A stretch of 64,000 bases of DNA. Source: Mucilaginibacter sp. GTDB lineage: Bacteria > Bacteroidota > Bacteroidia > Sphingobacteriales > Sphingobacteriaceae. This document shows positions 1-8,195 of the stretch, one piece after another. Within the stretch, counting starts at the first letter, position 1. Every line of letters starts with the position of its first letter. Made by a program: the position numbers and the translations under genes. Where the stretch lies: positions 19 through 64,018 of the forward strand of contig JAQBOK010000023.1 in NCBI GenBank assembly GCA_028288085.1, written 5' to 3'. The notes under the pieces are model-generated. The model had not been told where the DNA came from and searched no databases. It was given only the letters and a program-made list of their open reading frames with translations.

Positions 1-346
1 CGGGGGCGTGCAAATAAGTAAACCCGCGATCTTTCCATTCTTTGGTTCTTGCAATGGCGCCTTTTGCCGAAGTGGTGGTATGGTCAATAATTACCGCTCC
101 TTTTTTAAACCCTGCACTTGCCATTTCCAATACCTCGTTTACCGTGTCATCATCTTTTAGCGTAACATGAATAGTATCCGCGCCACTTACGGCGTCAGTA
201 ACCTTGGCGAATGCTTTTGCGCCGAAGGCCTCCAATGCTTTAGCCTTGCTTTCGGTACGGTTCCAGACTTGCACCTGGTCGCCTTTTTTGATCATCGCCT
301 TAACAAAATTTGAGCCTAAAAGACCCATGCCCAGAAATGCTTTCAT
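1..346 (-). CDS. NAD(P)-dependent oxidoreductase, 3-hydroxyisobutyrate/6-phosphogluconate dehydrogenase family (3'-truncated by the window edge)
   Basis: Not in the ORF track. Manual translation from ATG at 346 gives MKAFLGMGLLGSNFVKAMIKKGDQVQVWNRT...IIDHTT, with the Rossmann GxGxxG and WNRT motifs. Confidence 0.85.
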   Translation of the reverse strand, partial: MKAFLGMGLLGSNFVKAMIKKGDQVQVWNRTESKAKALEAFGAKAFAKVTDAVSGADTIHVTLKDDDTVNEVLEMASAGFKKGAVIIDHTTTSAKGAIARTKEWKDRGFTYLHAP

Positions 347-488
347 ACGTTTTATTTGTTTGGATAAAGTTAAGCACTTATGTTGGAGATTATAGTAATG
401 CGAACGTAAAACACGTGGTGAGGTTACAATTGTTTTCAAATAATTCCCTATCTTTCAATCCATTACAAACCATCACAATTTACGTTTC

Positions 489-1214
489 ATGGACACAGGG
501 CACAAATTCACGGAGAGCGGCTACAAAAATGTCAGCTTGCTGTTTGTTGTTATATTCGGCATTGTTGTTTTAGGTTTTTTCAAAACCTATTTCGGGCTCT
601 TCCCTACTTTTAATAACGTTACCACCATCCAGCATATCCACGGCCTGCTGTTCACAACTTGGTTTGTGCTGCTGTTTGTTCAGCCGCTGCTCATCCGGTC
701 TGGCAAATACAAGGCGCACCGCATCATCGGCAGGTTTACTTATGTGCTGGTGCCCTGCATCATCATTTCCATCCATTTTATTGCCCGCGAGGCGTATTTA
801 AACGCGGTAGCCGGGCATGGGCCCATGCCAGCCATCCTTGCCGGTATGTATTTTCCTACTTACCAGATATTTGATTTCTTCGTATTGTACCTGCTCGCCA
901 TCATCAACAAAAACCGCACGCCATACCACATGCGCTATATGATCGCCACCTCGCTGGCTATTGCCGGGGCTGGGCTGCGCAGGTTTTTTATGCATGTGTT
1001 TGGTATGGGCGGCGCCGACGCAGTGCTGTACGGGTTTTTAGTGCCCGACCTGATCCTGGTCGGCCTCATCGTTTACGACAGGATAAAGGGCAACAACAGC
1101 AGGGCCTATATCATCGCGTTCATCATTTTAGCGGTATCGCATTACGGTTATTATTTTATACCCCAGTCTGCGTTATGGCAATCCGTAGCCGGGTATTTTG
1201 TGAGGTTTTTTTAG
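489..1214 (+). CDS. Multi-pass inner-membrane protein of unknown function (possible heme-b-binding His residues)
   Basis: 241 aa with 6-7 hydrophobic segments and spaced His (HIHG, AHR, YHMRYM); divergent from the oxidoreductase. Confidence 0.7.
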   Translation: MDTGHKFTESGYKNVSLLFVVIFGIVVLGFFKTYFGLFPTFNNVTTIQHIHGLLFTTWFVLLFVQPLLIRSGKYKAHRIIGRFTYVLVPCIIISIHFIAREAYLNAVAGHGPMPAILAGMYFPTYQIFDFFVLYLLAIINKNRTPYHMRYMIATSLAIAGAGLRRFFMHVFGMGGADAVLYGFLVPDLILVGLIVYDRIKGNNSRAYIIAFIILAVSHYGYYFIPQSALWQSVAGYFVRFF

Positions 1215-1242
1215 GGGAGCGCCTTAATGATATAACAAACCA

Positions 1243-1402
1243 TGTCATTCGAACGAGTGTAGCGAGGAGAACTATTCTCTTGAGCGGGTTGTGCCTGGAT
1301 TGCGGGTGCGAAAAAAACTTATACGCTGCGCACAGTCCGCTTTGCATGTTGTCGAAGATCTCTCACTATCGCCTGCCTACCGCAGGCAGGTTCGAGATGA
1401 CA
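1243..1402. repeat. REP/MITE-like palindromic element with TGTCAT...ATGACA ends
   Basis: TGTCATTCGAAC (1243-1254) is a near-perfect inverted match to GTTCGAGATGACA (1390-1402); internal hairpin CCTGCCT-accgc-AGGCAGG (1372-1390). Confidence 0.65.
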
Positions 1403-1639
1403 GAGTTGAAGAAATTTCGGGCGTTGCCGCTGATAGGAGCGGGCCGGGCCTTACACTCATACGTCTGCAGGCATTAGGCGCGAAGGCCGGTATATGTTTC
1501 AGTCCCTAACGCATTTGTCTGAACCATGATTTATGTGATTAGATGATTGCCATGATTTTCCTAGCGGGTTGTTAGAAAAAGGCACGAGAAGCCTTTACGC
1601 TATACCCAGCTCCTCATTCTCGCGCCAGGTTTGGGGAAA

Positions 1640-2485
1640 TTAATTTTTTACAATAATTTCTTTTAATTCATTTATTGTGAAATAATTATTTTTCGCATTC
1701 TTCCGGTGCAACATTCTATGGCAATTGGAACATACCAATGCAAGGTCATTTAATTTTGTAAGTCGTTTCCCAGCTTTGGCAATAGGAGATTTGTGATGAC
1801 ATTCGATAAACCCATTTCCATGATTTCCATATCTTAATTTGAAATCAAAATTACAAACCTCGCAAAATAGAATATTACTTTTAATAGCTTCTTTTTTTTT
1901 TGCTTGGATAATTTGGGGGTCTCTTTCATAGTATTTATGTTCTTTCATCTTTACTTTTTCTTCACCCTCAATAGAACCATCTATCTCGATCTCGAAATTA
2001 TCATTAATAACAAATTCGAATAAATCTTTTAGTTCAGCATCTGGGTTAAAAAGATTCCAAATTTTTCTTTTTAGCTCGAGTTCGCTAATAGGTAATTTGT
2101 TAGTTCTTTCTATTAAGTTAATATTGCAACAAGCTCCCCTATTTGGCTTAAAAAAATTAAGTTCAATAGGTTTTGGAATGTATGCCATTGCGATAACCCC
2201 GACTAATCTGCAAAATGGGTGAGTAGAATCTCTTACTTCTATTTTATTATCCAATGGAGTTACAATATGCGTAAGATAAGTGCCTTTGGGATATTCTAAG
2301 CCCTTGTTGATTGTTTGAAATATTAAGATTAATTCACCACAAATAGCTTTTAGTACATTTCCTTTTTTCCTTTTTGGCCAATTTAAAAAAAATGAGCCTC
2401 CAACAATTGCGTCCATGTACGCCCACCCATTTCCTTGTTCCCTTTTGACGTTTTTAACCCAATTTAGATCACTAGAGGTATACAT
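1640..2485 (-). CDS. HNH endonuclease (McrA/type IV restriction-like) with uncharacterised N-terminal domain
   Basis: C-terminal CEVC...IECHH...LVCSNCHRMLH is a zinc-binding HNH of the McrA type; AT-rich. Confidence 0.85.
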   Translation of the reverse strand: MYTSSDLNWVKNVKREQGNGWAYMDAIVGGSFFLNWPKRKKGNVLKAICGELILIFQTINKGLEYPKGTYLTHIVTPLDNKIEVRDSTHPFCRLVGVIAMAYIPKPIELNFFKPNRGACCNINLIERTNKLPISELELKRKIWNLFNPDAELKDLFEFVINDNFEIEIDGSIEGEEKVKMKEHKYYERDPQIIQAKKKEAIKSNILFCEVCNFDFKLRYGNHGNGFIECHHKSPIAKAGKRLTKLNDLALVCSNCHRMLHRKNAKNNYFTINELKEIIVKN

Positions 2486-2488
2486 ATA

Positions 2489-3520
2489 TTATTCAGCTAT
2501 AGTATAATTGGCAATCATTTTCTCACCACAACTTAATAAGTAATCATAAGAAACAACTTCAATATGATTCAAATTACAATTTAGCATTCTAAGAGCATTA
2601 TATTGATCTTCGTTAAAATCCCTTGTCCTACCGGCAATAATTTTAATTCTTGGTCTTATGATCTTGACTTTATGTTCTTTTTCAATATTTAATTTGAAAT
2701 CATCCATTTTTTGAAAATAGAGCATGCATTGTCCAATCACCTTTGCCAAATCGGTGGACGGGTAATAACTACTGTGACTATCATCAAATTTAAAAAGTCC
2801 ACAAGTTGGTCGTTTAAGTTCTATTAAATCTAAAAATCCGTCTATAGATTGCATTAACATATCCGCTTCACTGAACATTGCGATTTTACGGGCTTCATGT
2901 TTTTTAATATATTCAATCCCGAAAATCCAATTGTGGTTTTTTTCAATCCAATTTTGAAATATTTTTTCAGGTTGGCTTGCTAAATAATCGCTTAGATTTT
3001 GATGGCTTTTTATTTCCTCTACGATATTTCCTGATTCTTCCAGTTCTAATAGTAATCTTAAATTATTAATCTCGTTCTGCCATTTTTGATGAATATATAG
3101 CGATGATAAATCCGCTATTATGCTTTTTCCTGATTTTTCTTCATCAGATAATGCAATAAGCAAATTTTTAATTCTATCCTCACTATTAAGTTTGTTTATT
3201 ACGATTTTCAGTATTCCATTATCGATATTTGACGATTTACTTAGAATATCAGCAATTTCATCGGTTGTTTCCAAAAATTTGCCGGATGTTTCGAAGGTTG
3301 AATCTCTGATAATTGAGATTTGACTCAAATGACTATATAGGCTTTTAATTTGGTTGCAATTCAAAGTTTCCGAAAATTTCGGTAGCCCATTATTATCAAA
3401 TGCATAAATTGACATAGTTAGATCGGCAGCGTTGACCGAGCTGTTTTTAATTCCAGAGAAATTTACCTTTAAAGTTAAGTTCTCATTTGAAAATATTTCT
3501 CTATCAAATTTAATACTCAT
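2489..3520 (-). CDS. sduA: Shedu anti-phage nuclease (DUF4263, PD-(D/E)xK)
   Basis: C-terminal EKIFQNWIEKNHNWIFG...ADMLMQSIDGFLDLIELKRP...VIGQCMLY...PRIKIIAGR...IEVVSYDYLL matches DUF4263/SduA motifs. Confidence 0.85.
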   Translation of the reverse strand: MSIKFDREIFSNENLTLKVNFSGIKNSSVNAADLTMSIYAFDNNGLPKFSETLNCNQIKSLYSHLSQISIIRDSTFETSGKFLETTDEIADILSKSSNIDNGILKIVINKLNSEDRIKNLLIALSDEEKSGKSIIADLSSLYIHQKWQNEINNLRLLLELEESGNIVEEIKSHQNLSDYLASQPEKIFQNWIEKNHNWIFGIEYIKKHEARKIAMFSEADMLMQSIDGFLDLIELKRPTCGLFKFDDSHSSYYPSTDLAKVIGQCMLYFQKMDDFKLNIEKEHKVKIIRPRIKIIAGRTRDFNEDQYNALRMLNCNLNHIEVVSYDYLLSCGEKMIANYTIAE

Positions 3521-3867
3521 CAGACTTTCATAATTACATCTTTATAACCATCCCACTCAGAATTGTAATTCTCATGATACGGGGGTGCAAACGCTCCTTT
3601 TTCTAATAGTACAAACACATTACTAAGGTCTTCAATATTATACATTCTGAAACTGGGAAATGGTTTTCCTTCTTTTGAATCAGATACGCCGTCAATTTGT
3701 ACTATATGTACTTTGGTGCTTTGTATATTTGTATTTTTTGCTGTAAAAATAAAGACCGCATAAGGATGTCCTATCCTTACTCCTTGCACCTTTCCTTCCT
3801 TGTTGTATTCAAAGGAAATATGGTTCCTGCTAGTTATGGCCTGTTTTAAAACTTCTAATGTGTTCAT
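3520..3867 (-). CDS. Stand-alone WYL-domain protein (no HTH)
   Basis: LKQAITSRNHISFEY...VRIGHPYAV...SFRMYNIEDLSNV fits the WYL pattern (AI..r..l.f.Y...R.v.Py...FRl.rI); stop overlaps the Shedu ATG (TGATG). Confidence 0.7.
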   Translation of the reverse strand: MNTLEVLKQAITSRNHISFEYNKEGKVQGVRIGHPYAVFIFTAKNTNIQSTKVHIVQIDGVSDSKEGKPFPSFRMYNIEDLSNVFVLLEKGAFAPPYHENYNSEWDGYKDVIMKV

Positions 3868-3990
3868 ATTGTTTAATTAAGGTTAGTTTCATTTAAACTT
3901 TGTAATAAGCTTATTATTTCAACAATACACATGCTTCAAATCCAATCGGTAAAGTTTTATCAAAAAGTACTATGAATAAAAAGCGTTTAT

Positions 3991-4392
3991 TTAAAGCAAT
4001 TTGTCAAGAAGCATTTTAATTTCTTCTAATCTTGGCTGCAACTGTTTTTTGTTGCTTTTATAATAGTCACTTATTTCAGGCAATCTATCAGGGGCTATTA
4101 TTTGTTCCTTAAGACTTGAACGTGTGCTATATGAAGTTGGATCAGAAAATATCCCTGATATAATTAAAATAGTCAAGTCTAAAGCGCGATGTATAGGTAA
4201 TTCTTCACTTTGTCGGCTCCATTTATTGCCTGTGTGCCTAAAAACCTTTACAGAAATTTGATCTTCGTCATACTGTGCTTGTCCAATAGACAATGCTTTA
4301 GCATCGCTGTTAGGAGCATATATGCCATCTTTTTTATCATAGTCATTTACAGCTATAATTGGTTTATGCTGTAAGTGTTCGGGGACATTCAT
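3991..4392 (-). CDS. DUF6530-family protein
   Basis: HKPII...YDKKDGIYAPNSDAKALSIG...SVKVFRHTGNKWSRQSEELPIHRALDL matches the DUF6530 consensus as recalled. Confidence 0.75.
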   Translation of the reverse strand: MNVPEHLQHKPIIAVNDYDKKDGIYAPNSDAKALSIGQAQYDEDQISVKVFRHTGNKWSRQSEELPIHRALDLTILIISGIFSDPTSYSTRSSLKEQIIAPDRLPEISDYYKSNKKQLQPRLEEIKMLLDKLL

Positions 4393-4564
4393 AAGAAAAT
4401 TTATTATTAAATGATTGGTTTTGATTTACTGTTTAGGCTAATACCAAAGCTTGGTTTAAATAATTTAACAAACAACCCGTTAAAACACCCAATTTTCAAT
4501 CCTTATTAGCCTGTAATAATGGTAATTAAAAAAATGGTTCGGACAAAGTCAATCAACGATTGCA

Positions 4565-5815
4565 TTACTCTAATAGCAATGAATCATCCTCATCCCCCAA
4601 GCTCAGATGGATCATGTCATTCCCTGCGATACCTTCAATTGAGCCTTTAATATGGGCGGCGTTTAGTAATACTTTTTCCAATTGTTTTTCGCGGGCTTTC
4701 CATAGTTTTTCCATGGCATCGCGTTCCCGTTGTATGGATAGGCGCATGCTCATATAGCCTTCGCGTATGGCTTTCCACTGTTCAGAAAACTCATTGCTTA
4801 TCAAATAATCATATAGCAGGTGCATTTTATCGCCTTTGTTATCCTGTGCTTTTGCCAGGTTGGCAAGCTTTATAATGCCATCCCGTAAGATGTATGATAC
4901 TGCTTTCACTTCATCAAATGAACAGATCCAAACACCCTCTTTTTCGCCAAAGCAATCCATCCCTTTTGGGTAGCATTGGGTAACAATTACAGCTACATCA
5001 ACCCCAATGGCACGCATATCCTTTTTCAATTTATCTATCCAGTCGATGGAGAAATCTTTGGTCCGCTTGCTCTCGTAAATAATGCGGCCACATTCCTGTC
5101 CAAATTGGTTGCGTACGGTTTGGATACAATCAGCACCGCGAACACCTTTGCCAACTTCGCCTATTACATCAAAAGGAAAACTATCGCGAAGCAATTCCTC
5201 CAATATCAGTTCCTGTACCTCACCCTGTAACTGCATGGAGCCTTGTTCCACTTTGCGTTTCATTTCTTCGGCAAGTTTTTTCTGGTCGTCTAACTGTTTT
5301 TCCAGTTCCTTTACCTTTAGCTGGTAGTCGGTATCTTTCAAATTGAATTTTTCGGCTTCCTGCTTTCTTATATTTTCGGTGAGTTCATTCCTTTGTTCCT
5401 GCAATTTGCGTTGCATGGAAAGTTCCAGTTCTTCTTCTTTTTGTTTTAGCGCCTGTTCTTTTTGCAGAAATTCAAGCTCTTTTTGCCGGGAAGCCTTTAG
5501 TTTTTCGTCTGAATCTTTAATGTTGCTTTGCAGCATCAGCAATTGATTCTCAAAGTCGGATGCTATGGATTTACGCAGATTTTCTTCAAGGGTTAATTGC
5601 AACTGTTTTTTCTCTGCTGCAAGGCGTTCTTCAAATTGTAATTGCTGCTGACGTTCTTTTACTGTAAACTCACTTTCTTTTCTCTTATATTCTTCTTCTT
5701 TTTGGGTAGTATATTCCTGCATTTTTACCCGAAGCTCTTTTTTATATTCTTCAGCCATCACTTCCTCAATAGGAAATCCAAAACCACAATTAGGACATTT
5801 AACTTCTGTTGCCAT
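4565..5815 (-). CDS. DUF2130-family protein (Zn ribbon, coiled coil, RmuC-like/PD-(D/E)xK C-terminus)
   Basis: Start reassigned to MATEVKCPNCG (ATG at 5815); long E/K/Q coiled coil, then QLQGEVQELILE...GADCIQ...IIYESKRTK. Confidence 0.85.
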   Translation of the reverse strand: MATEVKCPNCGFGFPIEEVMAEEYKKELRVKMQEYTTQKEEEYKRKESEFTVKERQQQLQFEERLAAEKKQLQLTLEENLRKSIASDFENQLLMLQSNIKDSDEKLKASRQKELEFLQKEQALKQKEEELELSMQRKLQEQRNELTENIRKQEAEKFNLKDTDYQLKVKELEKQLDDQKKLAEEMKRKVEQGSMQLQGEVQELILEELLRDSFPFDVIGEVGKGVRGADCIQTVRNQFGQECGRIIYESKRTKDFSIDWIDKLKKDMRAIGVDVAVIVTQCYPKGMDCFGEKEGVWICSFDEVKAVSYILRDGIIKLANLAKAQDNKGDKMHLLYDYLISNEFSEQWKAIREGYMSMRLSIQRERDAMEKLWKAREKQLEKVLLNAAHIKGSIEGIAGNDMIHLSLGDEDDSLLLE

Positions 5816-5937
5816 GTTTAAAAAAGGAATTAAATCTGCAATTATTATAATCGCGTTTAAAGATAGTGATTGGTAAAATATCTTCCTGATGGGATGCAGA
5901 AATAAATTGGTATGAGGGGGGCGGTTGTCCGCCGAGG

Positions 5938-5985
5938 GTATCACTTTGAGCCGGTTGAAGTTTGCCTGCCACGCTTCGACATTGC
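5938..5985. repeat. Degenerate REP-like element
   Basis: tcactttgagccggttgaag...cttcgac resembles TGTCA(C/T)CCTGAGC..GTCGAAG...CTTCGAC palindromic repeats; heavily decayed. Confidence 0.3.
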
Positions 5986-6179
5986 GGTGGTTGGGTTGTG
6001 GTTTATTGAATGTTGTTCCGCTCATGGCCGCGGGGGGCCTAGTCCGTTATTCACCAGTTATTTATTTTTTATCGGTGTTCATGATTGCTATCGCAATTTG
6101 ACGCGTCAAAAGTAACCAAAAGCGCTTGTTATTGTTATTCAATGGTGTTCATGAGACCGCTACGCTAAGTCTTGGATTT

Positions 6180-7050
6180 CTATGATTCATGCAACTAATC
6201 TGGAATAATTTTTTCATAGGGTCTGTTTTGGTTCACACAGACAAAAACACGTAATATTAGCTTGTTTCTTATCGCATTTACTGTGCTCATTTTATTTTTT
6301 CCATCCTGTTTTACCTGCGTTCGTAATAAAGTTTCAGGTCTTCGCTATGTTATATTGAGATTAATGCAGCAAGGTGTAATAGCCTTTTAAGATTTTTATT
6401 GGCCATATGCAACACTCTTCCTTTGCCTTTATATAAGCCGGATTCTTTTACGAATGGACGACACCGGCATGGCAGGCAAACTTTTTAGGGTCTTTAATCT
6501 CTTTAAACTCGTTTGTAGTGATGATGATCATAGTAGCAGTTACCTTTCCAATACCGCTTACTGATGTGATTAGGGCATATAGCCGCTTGAGTTCAGGATC
6601 GGTAGCTATGATCTCATCAATTTCTTTTTCAACTTTTCCAAATCTGTTTTGAGCCCGTTTAAGGTTCTATTACACAGCTTATTGTGGTGAGTTTGCTGTC
6701 TTTTTTTTATAAATGCGCCTGTCTCTTTGAATGGGGTCTTCAATGACTTTTGAACTTGCACTAGTCGAGAGCGGATTGTGGACAAGTGTGCCAATTGTTG
6801 AATAACTTCTCTTTTGGGTGTCCACAAGCGTAATCCATCACGATTTTTATAAGCGTATTCCGCAATATCGCATCTATCTTGTCATTTTTACTACGTAAAT
6901 TCCATAAGGAGTTTTTTATTTGCGTAGCTGCCTCCAAACAGATATGAATTTTTTTGGATAAAAAGCGGAAGCAATAATTGCGTTAGTGATGGAAGTGGAT
7001 ACCGGCCATGGTGACTAATGCCTGTGCAGTATGAACGGACTGCACGGCCG
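6180..7050 (-). pseudogene. IS110-family transposase remnant with multiple frameshifts
   Basis: Fragments across frames: LEAATQIKNSL, KNDKIDA-IAEYAYKNR-LRLWTPKREVIQQL, ITSVSGIGKVTA, KFACHAGV-PFVKESGLYKGKG, GKNKMSTVNAIRNKLILRVF. Ends approximate. Confidence 0.85.
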
Positions 7051-7221
7051 CAGGCAACGCCCCAATTTTAACGCAATGACGGTTTAAATAAATTAGAAAT
7101 CGAGCATTCCAAATCCCTCCCTAACCCACAAAATAAATACACAACGAACTGTGAATATTGTGATTTATTCTTTTTAAATTTATTCAGCATTTATTTCTTA
7201 ATTTCTCAATACCAGCCTATT

Positions 7222-7800
7222 ATGAAAAAGAATCACTTTTATCATTTTGCATTATTGGTATTATTAAGCCAGTTTGCAACATCGTTTGTTTTAGCACAAA
7301 CCAATCAGCCAATAATAGCTTATGTCAGCATCGACGGTACAAAAACAGGGGTATTTAAAGGCAATGCCGTTACAGAGGGCAACGAAGGCAAAATTGAATG
7401 TATCGGTTTCAGATATTCTGTTGCGGTACCTCATGATGTATCAAGCGGCCGGAGCAGCGGCAAACGCCAGCAATCGCCATTTGTTATTATAAAAAACATC
7501 GACTACTCGACCCCGCAATTATTACAGGCCGCCTACAACAACGAAACCCTGAAAACGGTGACCATTGAATTTACCAAAAAATCTGCCGACGGGCGGCAAA
7601 CCATCGCTTATAGGGTAACGCTCAAAAATGCTTCCATTTCGCTGATATCACAATATGGCGGTACAGCCTCGGCAGACAATGGCGTAAACCTTACCAACAA
7701 TGGCAGCTTGTTTGAGGAAGTTACCTTTACTTTCCAGGACATACAGTCTGATCACCTTATAGGCAACACCACCGCAATGGATTCCTGGACTAAGGAATAG
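7222..7800 (+). CDS. hcp: Orphan Hcp/TssD-like tube protein with N-terminal Sec signal peptide
   Basis: SGRSSGKRQQSPFVIIKNIDYSTPQLLQA...NETLKTVTIEF...VTLKNASIS...EEVTFTFQDI matches Hcp1; preceded by MKKNHFYHFALLVLLSQFATSFVLA|Q. Confidence 0.85.
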   Translation: MKKNHFYHFALLVLLSQFATSFVLAQTNQPIIAYVSIDGTKTGVFKGNAVTEGNEGKIECIGFRYSVAVPHDVSSGRSSGKRQQSPFVIIKNIDYSTPQLLQAAYNNETLKTVTIEFTKKSADGRQTIAYRVTLKNASISLISQYGGTASADNGVNLTNNGSLFEEVTFTFQDIQSDHLIGNTTAMDSWTKE

Positions 7801-7829
7801 GAGAATTAAATTCAAATGTAAACATAAAA

Positions 7830-7885
7830 TCCTTCCCCCTGGGAGGGGTACGGCTGGCCGTGATGTAGCAGGGCGGGGTTTAGCA
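7830..7885. repeat. GC-rich palindromic intergenic repeat (CCTTCCCCCTGGGAGGGG type)
   Basis: Related motifs at 41126-41162 and about 42675-42700; lies downstream of hcp. Confidence 0.4.
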
Positions 7886-7964
7886 AACTATTTAACTCCA
7901 TCTCCAACAAACGGAATCAAATCACCGGCAAATCACTGTCACCACTTTGGCCACTCCGTTTACT

Positions 7965-7972
7965 TAAATTTG
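7965..7972 (+). promoter_or_regulatory. Bacteroidota -7 promoter element TAAATTTG
   Basis: Matches TAnnTTTG about 220 bp upstream of the DUF6377 gene. Confidence 0.45.
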
Positions 7973-8195
7973 TATATCAGCATCAGCTGACGATCAACCT
8001 GTAACGCCTTGATCATGGTCGGCGTCTTGTCATTGGTTTTCCCGGTTTTACAGATCCTGTTTATTTAACAGTATTATTTACAATAAATTTTATATTTTTA
8101 GAATATCGATAACCGCGCTTAATTTTAATGTTTTTAACCTTAGGCCCGGCAACCAATTATACATCCTAAAGTTTTGTTACCCTGATTAATACTAA

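Follow-up and report, generated by a model that had tools for sequence, protein, structure and literature searches.

A low-GC foreign islet of Mucilaginibacter sp. probably stacks a WYL-like and Shedu gene pair, a candidate modification-dependent restriction enzyme and a passenger gene

Do neighbouring genes of defence type that lie on one strand, almost without gaps, make up a single system, or are they separate modules that have been stacked? The question is raised by four genes at positions 1640-4392 of a 64,000-nucleotide (nt) stretch of contig JAQBOK010000023.1 of Mucilaginibacter sp. (hereafter the window, meaning the whole stretch that was analysed), which encode a DUF6530 protein, a small WYL-like protein, a Shedu nuclease and an HNH protein. 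A sequence-only reading of this DNA had proposed one composite system of all four genes, with a nucleic-acid sensor that controls or partners two nucleases. Our analysis points to a different answer, which we consider likely: the genes form a small foreign islet in which two independent defence modules are stacked together with one passenger, possibly on one transcript.

The relationship between the WYL-like and the Shedu gene was assessed in Shedu loci sampled from species-representative genomes (41 loci) and from metagenomes (80 loci), the flanks extending as far as 8 kb either way; all open reading frames (ORFs) of these loci were searched with the window proteins using phmmer. The WYL-like gene was found directly upstream of Shedu in 66/66 unique loci where the Shedu protein matches that of the window from its N-terminus and where there is room upstream, and the same 1-nt overlap between the two genes is usual in these loci. 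It is absent from all 14 loci whose Shedu has a different N-terminal region. Such perfect co-variation between the WYL-like gene and the Shedu N-terminal domain is expected for a protein-protein partnership of the two, and on this genomic evidence the WYL-like protein appears to be a true partner of Shedu, predicted to act as a partner or sensor subunit in a recurring anti-phage pair of already described type. The idea of a WYL protein partnering Shedu, which was part of the sequence-only reading, is thus supported. The HNH and DUF6530 proteins behave differently, as no homologue of either was found by phmmer within up to 8 kb on either side in 120 related Shedu loci. Stacking of genes in an island, which had been named beforehand as the outcome that would speak against a composite system, is therefore what is seen for HNH and DUF6530, and not for the WYL-like and Shedu genes.

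The Shedu protein belongs to a family with 325 full-length relatives (47-66 % identity) in many phyla, and matches the SduA_C domain at an E-value of 3e-18. A PADLOC search, the check suggested with the sequence-only reading, returned SduA for Shedu (E 4e-40) and mREase_IV for the HNH protein (E 4.5e-8). Residues D220, D227, D231, E234 and K236 (DLIELKRP motif) are invariant in 25 homologues, and the PD-(D/E)XK residues (D231, E234, K236) are intact. Hosts of the WYL-Shedu family include Bacteroidota, CPR (candidate phyla radiation) bacteria, Cloacimonadota, Ignavibacteriota, Fusobacteriota and Margulisbacteria. In a tblastn search with the window Shedu, plasmid matches were limited to partial ones in Calothrix and Halobaculum, with none on enterobacterial plasmids and none in phages.

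For the WYL-like protein, the assignment depends on the family and the fold. The window protein itself scores 18.9 bits against Pfam WYL (PF13280; E 0.0015, profile positions 2-40 of 70), which is less than the gathering cut-off of 21.8 bits, so that the original WYL label does not stand on this score; it is supported at the level of the family, since 35 of 67 orthologues match Pfam WYL (best E 4e-6), and at the level of the fold. An AlphaFold2 model built with 67 sequences has a predicted local distance difference test score (pLDDT) of 93.8, and the 24 best Foldseek matches of this model in the Protein Data Bank (PDB) are all WYL domains (PafBC, BrxR, DriD and CapW 7tb5), with query template modelling (TM) scores of 0.51-0.61. 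PDB sequence searches with the Shedu and WYL-like proteins or profiles gave no significant match, and the fold comparison alone was informative. Taken together, the family-level Pfam matches and the modelled fold place the protein in the WYL/Sm-like fold. Neither a helix-turn-helix (HTH) nor a WCX domain is seen in it by Pfam or in the model, and there is no conserved tryptophan in the family.

An architecture of this kind has been described in Escherichia coli as KELShedu, or 'Type IV Shedu', consisting of KELA and KELB (Zhang et al., Sci Adv 2025, PMC12577705). KELA is a 12.6-kDa WYL-like barrel without tryptophan, with CapW 7tb5 and BrxR 7t8k as its nearest structures. Its gene lies 3 bp upstream of that of KELB, a DUF4263 nuclease, in a bicistronic KELAB operon. 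Both genes are required, the complex forms via the KELB N-domain, the nuclease is inhibited by nucleoside triphosphates (NTPs), and protection is by abortive infection. The view of Shedu as a single-gene system, from which the sequence-only reading started, is thus outdated by this publication. The window pair resembles the published one in having an HTH-less WYL-like barrel of ~110-115 aa without conserved tryptophan directly upstream of a DUF4263 Shedu of ~340-360 aa, in the almost contiguous placement of the two genes, in a partner predicted to contact the Shedu N-domain and in its occurrence in defence islands. It differs in its host, a Bacteroidota member and not an enterobacterium, and in its junction, a 1-nt overlap compared with a 3-bp gap. 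Many members of the window family also have a DUF2130 gene right after Shedu, although the window's own operon does not, whereas no DUF2130 is mentioned in the sections consulted on KELAB. In this perspective, the combination of a WYL-like protein and Shedu, known so far from one E. coli operon, appears to be a large and widely transferred family.

With the single-gene Shedu SduA of Bacillus cereus and E. coli (Doron 2018; Loeff 2023, bioRxiv 10.1101/2023.08.10.552762; Gu 2023, bioRxiv 10.1101/2023.08.10.552793), the window protein shares the DUF4263 PD-(D/E)XK core with D...E-x-K, the variable N-terminal sensor domains and the frequent location beside restriction-modification (R-M) genes, but in the window subfamily Shedu is invariably accompanied by a WYL-like gene of its own. 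None of the Shedu (DUF4263) chains in the PDB sequence set was matched by the profile of the window subfamily, which is therefore a distant branch. The presence of a restriction enzyme next to Shedu is ordinary, because R-M systems harbour 602 out of 5,499 Shedu genes (bioRxiv 10.1101/2023.08.10.552793).

Some Shedu relatives show other neighbourhoods. Those of three loci (L014, L030 and L040; CPR bacteria and Planctomycetes) lack a WYL partner and carry a longer N-terminal region of another kind; the gene of a type I HsdM methylase precedes them by 2-17 nt, and an HsdS-like gene follows in L014 and L030. In six loci from different phyla (L001, L003, L004, L006, L032 and L039), WYL-Shedu pairs are adjoined, in one case at 0 nt, by a gene whose 150-aa product resembles GIY-YIG only weakly (Pfam E 0.005, below the cut-off), followed by that of a 775-818 aa SMC_N/AAA_15 ATPase; the two are possibly another defence pair.

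The second module is the HNH protein. Its C-terminal domain matches the Pfam HNH family (E 1.5e-7) and aligns with E. coli McrA (6ghc) at an E-value of 3.6e-7, in agreement with the McrA-like label given to it from the sequence. The HNH motif with its Cys4 zinc site is present; among 47 homologues, C208, C211, C252, C255, H230, H231, H256 and H260 are invariant and N254 is at least 90 % conserved. No Pfam match was obtained for residues 1-180. In the AlphaFold2 model (pLDDT 89.7), residues 1 to ~135 would fall in the PUA superfamily, with the best Foldseek matches to PH1033 and MJECL36 (EVE; 2p5d, 2hd9 and 1wmm, at a Foldseek probability of 1.00), THYN1 with 5-methylcytosine (5mC; 5j3e) and the YTH readers of N6-methyladenosine (m6A) YTHDF2 and DC1. 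The family is large, comprising 1462 full-length homologues of the same length and architecture, mostly in Bacteroidota. Four independent contexts of close homologues were examined, namely a conjugative element, a tRNA synthetase neighbourhood, a locus with an Eco57I-type R-M system and an SMC-like ATPase, and an island of Flavobacterium chilense, and none of them contained Shedu or WYL genes.

Fusions of PUA and HNH domains are established as single-protein modification-dependent restriction enzymes (PMC6765204, PMC7897488); VcaM4I and TspA15I are EVE-HNH enzymes (PMC7897488), and a screen was reported by Lutz et al. 2019 (PMC6765204). The window protein is like these enzymes and McrA (6ghc) in combining a putative N-terminal PUA-like (EVE/YTH-type) fold with a C-terminal Cys4 HNH domain in ~280 aa, and differs in that its N-domain has no Pfam match and a fold nearer to PH1033, MJECL36, THYN1 and YTH than to the listed EVE-HNH enzymes. 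The most economical reading is that the HNH protein is a candidate autonomous Type IV (modification-dependent) restriction enzyme stacked behind the Shedu pair, which would cut DNA carrying a modified base. It would add a PUA-like reader domain family of ~1,500 members to the candidate enzymes of this class. As a separate observation, two HNH homologues (L082 6922-7659 and L086 6876-7658) are followed 11-12 nt downstream by a gene for a 245-260 aa protein without Pfam match, and this follower is absent from the window.

The fourth gene encodes a short form of DUF6530. The match to PF20140 is above the cut-off (E 3e-34, 118.5 bits), yet covers only profile positions 1-85 of 159; a full-length match to the model is not seen, and the short form is common to G239 and 269 homologues, among which it is well conserved. 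DUF6530 is rare (4 of 401 genomes of the phylum), and a literature search returned no paper mentioning it. In seven DUF6530 contexts neither Shedu nor WYL nor HNH genes were found. The neighbours vary, from a HicB-like gene to a DACNV sensor-domain protein with a methyltransferase, a relaxase/primase element and unknown small genes, and DUF6530 typically heads such variable genes in mobile elements and defence islands after a long spacer. The protein is probably a passenger, marking the vehicle or cargo slot that brought the islet. Among the individual contexts, those of L174 and L175 have the short form ahead of a 448-aa protein that contains a DACNV 'probable sensor' domain and is encoded next to an N6_N4 methyltransferase; in L176 it heads a relaxase/primase element with OLD-like and UvrD-like (Gabija-type) genes.

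The four genes themselves are well defined (Table 1). Full-length homologues are numerous for all four proteins, and they are therefore real genes. The co-orientation noted from the sequence holds on the minus strand, and so do the junctions, read directly from the sequence: the WYL-like and Shedu genes have one base in common (TGATG), Shedu and HNH are separated by 3 nt, and DUF6530 and the WYL-like gene by 123 nt. The AT-richness relative to the flanks was likewise reproduced, as the GC content is 0.30-0.35 for the genes and 0.24-0.28 for the spacers between them over a 2.9-kb stretch, compared with 0.40 for the window, 0.50 for the spacer left of HNH and 0.405 for the DUF2130 gene on the other side. 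No DNA match to 1640-4392 was found in the 18 same-genus genomes searched. Among 41 genus genomes, this Shedu family is found only in G000, apart from one partial match with an in-frame stop. The islet is a recent horizontal acquisition. The partial match (G401:C22:83838-84377) covers the C-terminal half only, with an in-frame TAA, and probably represents a different Shedu in decay.

Table 1. Features of the islet and its resident neighbour, in window coordinates
Feature	Coordinates	Strand	Support
DUF6530 short-form protein, 133 aa	4392..3991	-	PF20140
WYL-like small protein, 115 aa, without HTH	3867..3520	-	weak Pfam WYL, family matches, fold
Shedu nuclease SduA, 343 aa: N-terminal region and C-terminal DUF4263 PD-(D/E)XK domain	3520..2489	-	PF14082, PADLOC SduA
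HNH protein, 281 aa: putative PUA-superfamily (EVE/YTH-like) fold and HNH	2485..1640	-	PF01844, PADLOC mREase_IV
DUF2130 coiled-coil PD-(D/E)XK-superfamily protein	probably 5815..4565, ORF extending to 6025	-	PF09903
Low-GC foreign islet carrying all four genes (DUF6530, WYL-like, Shedu, HNH)	1620..4564		GC, no DNA match in 18 same-genus genomes

These observations suggest how the islet might work. By analogy with KELA and KELB, the 115-aa Sm/SH3-barrel WYL-like protein would bind the N-terminal domain of Shedu and restrain or tune its PD-(D/E)XK nuclease until infection alters the nucleic-acid or nucleotide status of the cell, whereupon the released nuclease would degrade DNA non-specifically. 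In the HNH protein, the EVE/YTH-like pocket may read a modified base and the McrA-type zinc-finger HNH domain cut nearby, so that its targets would be phages that carry modified DNA and get past other systems. The islet, presumably delivered in the slot marked by DUF6530, lies directly downstream of a resident DUF2130 nuclease-like gene, a position that recurs for WYL-Shedu far above chance.

Several points weigh against two independent modules and a passenger. The searches of the 120 loci were made by single-sequence phmmer, which could miss very distant relatives of HNH and DUF6530. Immediately 3' of Shedu there is often a gene of nuclease type (DUF2130, RmuC or the weak GIY-YIG-like protein, whose Pfam E of 0.005 is below the cut-off), and HNH could fill a functional slot there and not be a mere neighbour. 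The 3-nt gap between Shedu and HNH, with no obvious promoter or terminator between the genes, fits a common transcript, and the two may therefore interact functionally. For the HNH protein, the fold matches of the N-domain are moderate (E 2e-3 to 5e-2, target TM 0.44-0.54), and the EVE-HNH enzyme VcaM4I is not among its 50 best Foldseek matches. Finally, the pair would be a KELShedu-type two-gene system by its architecture, the comparison with KELA and KELB having been made at the level of their description. On transcription itself, scans for sigma-70 promoters and terminators performed no better than on shuffled sequence, and the exact Bacteroidota -7 motif (TAnnTTTG) occurs on the minus strand at 6114, upstream of DUF2130, and otherwise inside genes.

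The gene directly upstream of the islet, just beyond the region considered in the sequence-only reading, deserves separate attention. It encodes a DUF2130 protein (E 2e-64) with a zinc ribbon and a coiled coil, for which no PADLOC match was obtained; the family is listed in the PD-(D/E)XK superfamily (PMC3424549). The full ORF would give 486 aa. Since the ten same-genus orthologues have 416-428 aa, eight of them 416, the start is probably not at 6025 but at Met71 (5815), which immediately precedes the CPNC zinc ribbon. DNA matches with 70-77 % identity occur in 12 of the 18 same-genus genomes, the amino acid identity is 73-82 % in the ten regions fetched, and the neighbours in the genus are housekeeping genes. 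DUF2130 is thus a conserved resident gene of the genus. Copies of a short sequence just upstream of it (5968-6175), with 78-96 % identity, are present on at least seven further contigs of this genome.

Elsewhere, DUF2130 is a recurrent neighbour of the WYL-Shedu pair. It adjoins the pair in 13 of 64 unique loci, or 8 of the 39 in which each flank reaches 1.5 kb or more, and Pfam RmuC genes do so in 2 further loci. For the four closest homologues (63-66 % identity), which are represented by five contigs, Shedu is in every case followed by DUF2130 at a distance of 5-24 nt; the adjacency is seen in seven or more clades of the Shedu tree, in differing arrangements, and in other clades the two genes are closely spaced or overlap (-17 to +53 nt). 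DUF2130 is present in 15 of the 32 genomes that contain a WYL-Shedu pair, always as a single copy, and in 6 of these the two are adjacent; the binomial probability of at least 6/15 is ~3e-13 under an assumed adjacency chance of 0.002 per genome. Against a background of 81 of 401 phylum genomes with DUF2130, the odds ratio is 3.5 (p 0.0014), an approximate value as some hosts come from other phyla. The link is one-sided, the pair being found near DUF2130 in none of 30 sampled DUF2130 loci.

The possibility that DUF2130 is a mere flank of an integration hot-spot was considered and set aside. No pure model, be it hot-spot or cassette, accounts for every case: the neighbours within the genus are housekeeping genes, yet DUF2130 has a patchy distribution among genomes related to one flavobacterial host (2 of 25) and therefore travels as accessory DNA in that group. 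One DUF2130 subfamily (L170, L011, L012 and L037) keeps 67-79 % identity across Bacteroidales, Flavobacteriales and Saccharibacteria hosts, while the Shedu proteins beside it belong to separate clades of their tree, a pattern that points to very slow evolution or to separate transfer.

No paper on phage defence was found among the four retrieved that mention DUF2130, judged by title and abstract, and the positional link with WYL-Shedu appears to be previously undescribed. We tentatively entertain the possibility, which is well short of probable, that a functional link exists between WYL-Shedu cassettes and DUF2130/RmuC-type coiled-coil PD-(D/E)XK proteins, which together would form an undescribed three-component variant of Shedu. 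The cassettes of many lineages might then bring their own DUF2130, with tight or overlapping junctions, an equally tentative proposition; here the cassette would have landed beside a resident DUF2130 and may use it. The DUF2130 protein could make or hold a DNA structure sensed by the WYL-like subunit, or could be a second effector. A role of RmuC-type PD-(D/E)XK proteins in defence has a precedent in Shield, whose ShdA is an anti-phage nuclease with an RmuC domain (PMC10270631). RmuC genes flank two WYL-Shedu loci, and DUF2130 is a separate Pfam family of the same superfamily; the window DUF2130 differs from Shield in being a soluble zinc-ribbon/coiled-coil protein conserved in the genus, and its defence role is only putative. 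The locus otherwise belongs to known kinds, and the DUF2130 association is the item worth following, as it provides a concrete handle for giving a role to a common nuclease-like protein without known function.

The rival explanation that survives best, though we regard it as improbable, carries this further to a three-part system with an exchangeable second nuclease, where WYL-Shedu is joined elsewhere by DUF2130 or RmuC and here by the EVE-like HNH protein, perhaps with help from the resident DUF2130. The short distances of DUF2130 from Shedu in the closest homologues and in other clades, and the recurrence of the adjacency over the tree, speak for it, and in L005 an RmuC gene lies 3 nt downstream of Shedu, exactly as HNH does in the window. 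However, the HNH family is widespread without Shedu and was never found with it in the other loci searched, while PUA-HNH enzymes work alone (PMC6765204, PMC7897488). About three quarters of the WYL-Shedu loci have no DUF2130 or RmuC neighbour, 17 of the 32 host genomes have no DUF2130, and defence islands are rich in nucleases anyway.

It is considerably less probable still that the WYL-like protein regulates transcription of the operon in the manner of BrxR, CapW or DriD and is not a nuclease subunit. Its nearest structures are indeed WYL domains of transcription factors (BrxR, CapW, DriD and PafBC), but with 115 aa it has neither an HTH nor a WCX domain, and its presence tracks the Shedu N-terminal domain perfectly, as for a protein-protein partner, a coupling that favours the subunit model over the regulator model. 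In KELShedu, moreover, KELA co-purified with KELB and did not repress its expression (PMC12577705). A composite of all four genes, with a WYL sensor controlling both nucleases and DUF6530 as a further component, is the least credible explanation and very unlikely, since co-orientation, tight spacing and common low GC are offset by the absence of the combination from the 120 Shedu loci, the four HNH contexts and the seven DUF6530 contexts, and by the fact that the WYL-like protein co-varies solely with the Shedu N-domain; setting it aside spares effort on a stacking artefact.

With the stacked-module reading retained, some features around the islet may be mentioned. The GC-rich 425-nt spacer left of HNH holds no known RNA, as an Rfam scan of window positions 1-8000 gave no match. 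A ~100-nt element is present in two inverted copies (1412-1516 and 6976-7069; 76-88 % complementary) that flank a 5.5-kb segment with the HNH, Shedu, WYL-like, DUF6530 and DUF2130 genes. These copies were considered as borders of a mobile unit and dismissed, since same-genus genomes contain dozens of copies of the element, in either orientation, and an intergenic repeat of REP/MITE-like type (repetitive extragenic palindrome/miniature inverted-repeat transposable element) is its probable nature. Further along, at 7222-7800, lies a gene for an Hcp-family protein (PF05638, E 1e-24), whose match begins at residue 34, after an apparent signal peptide.

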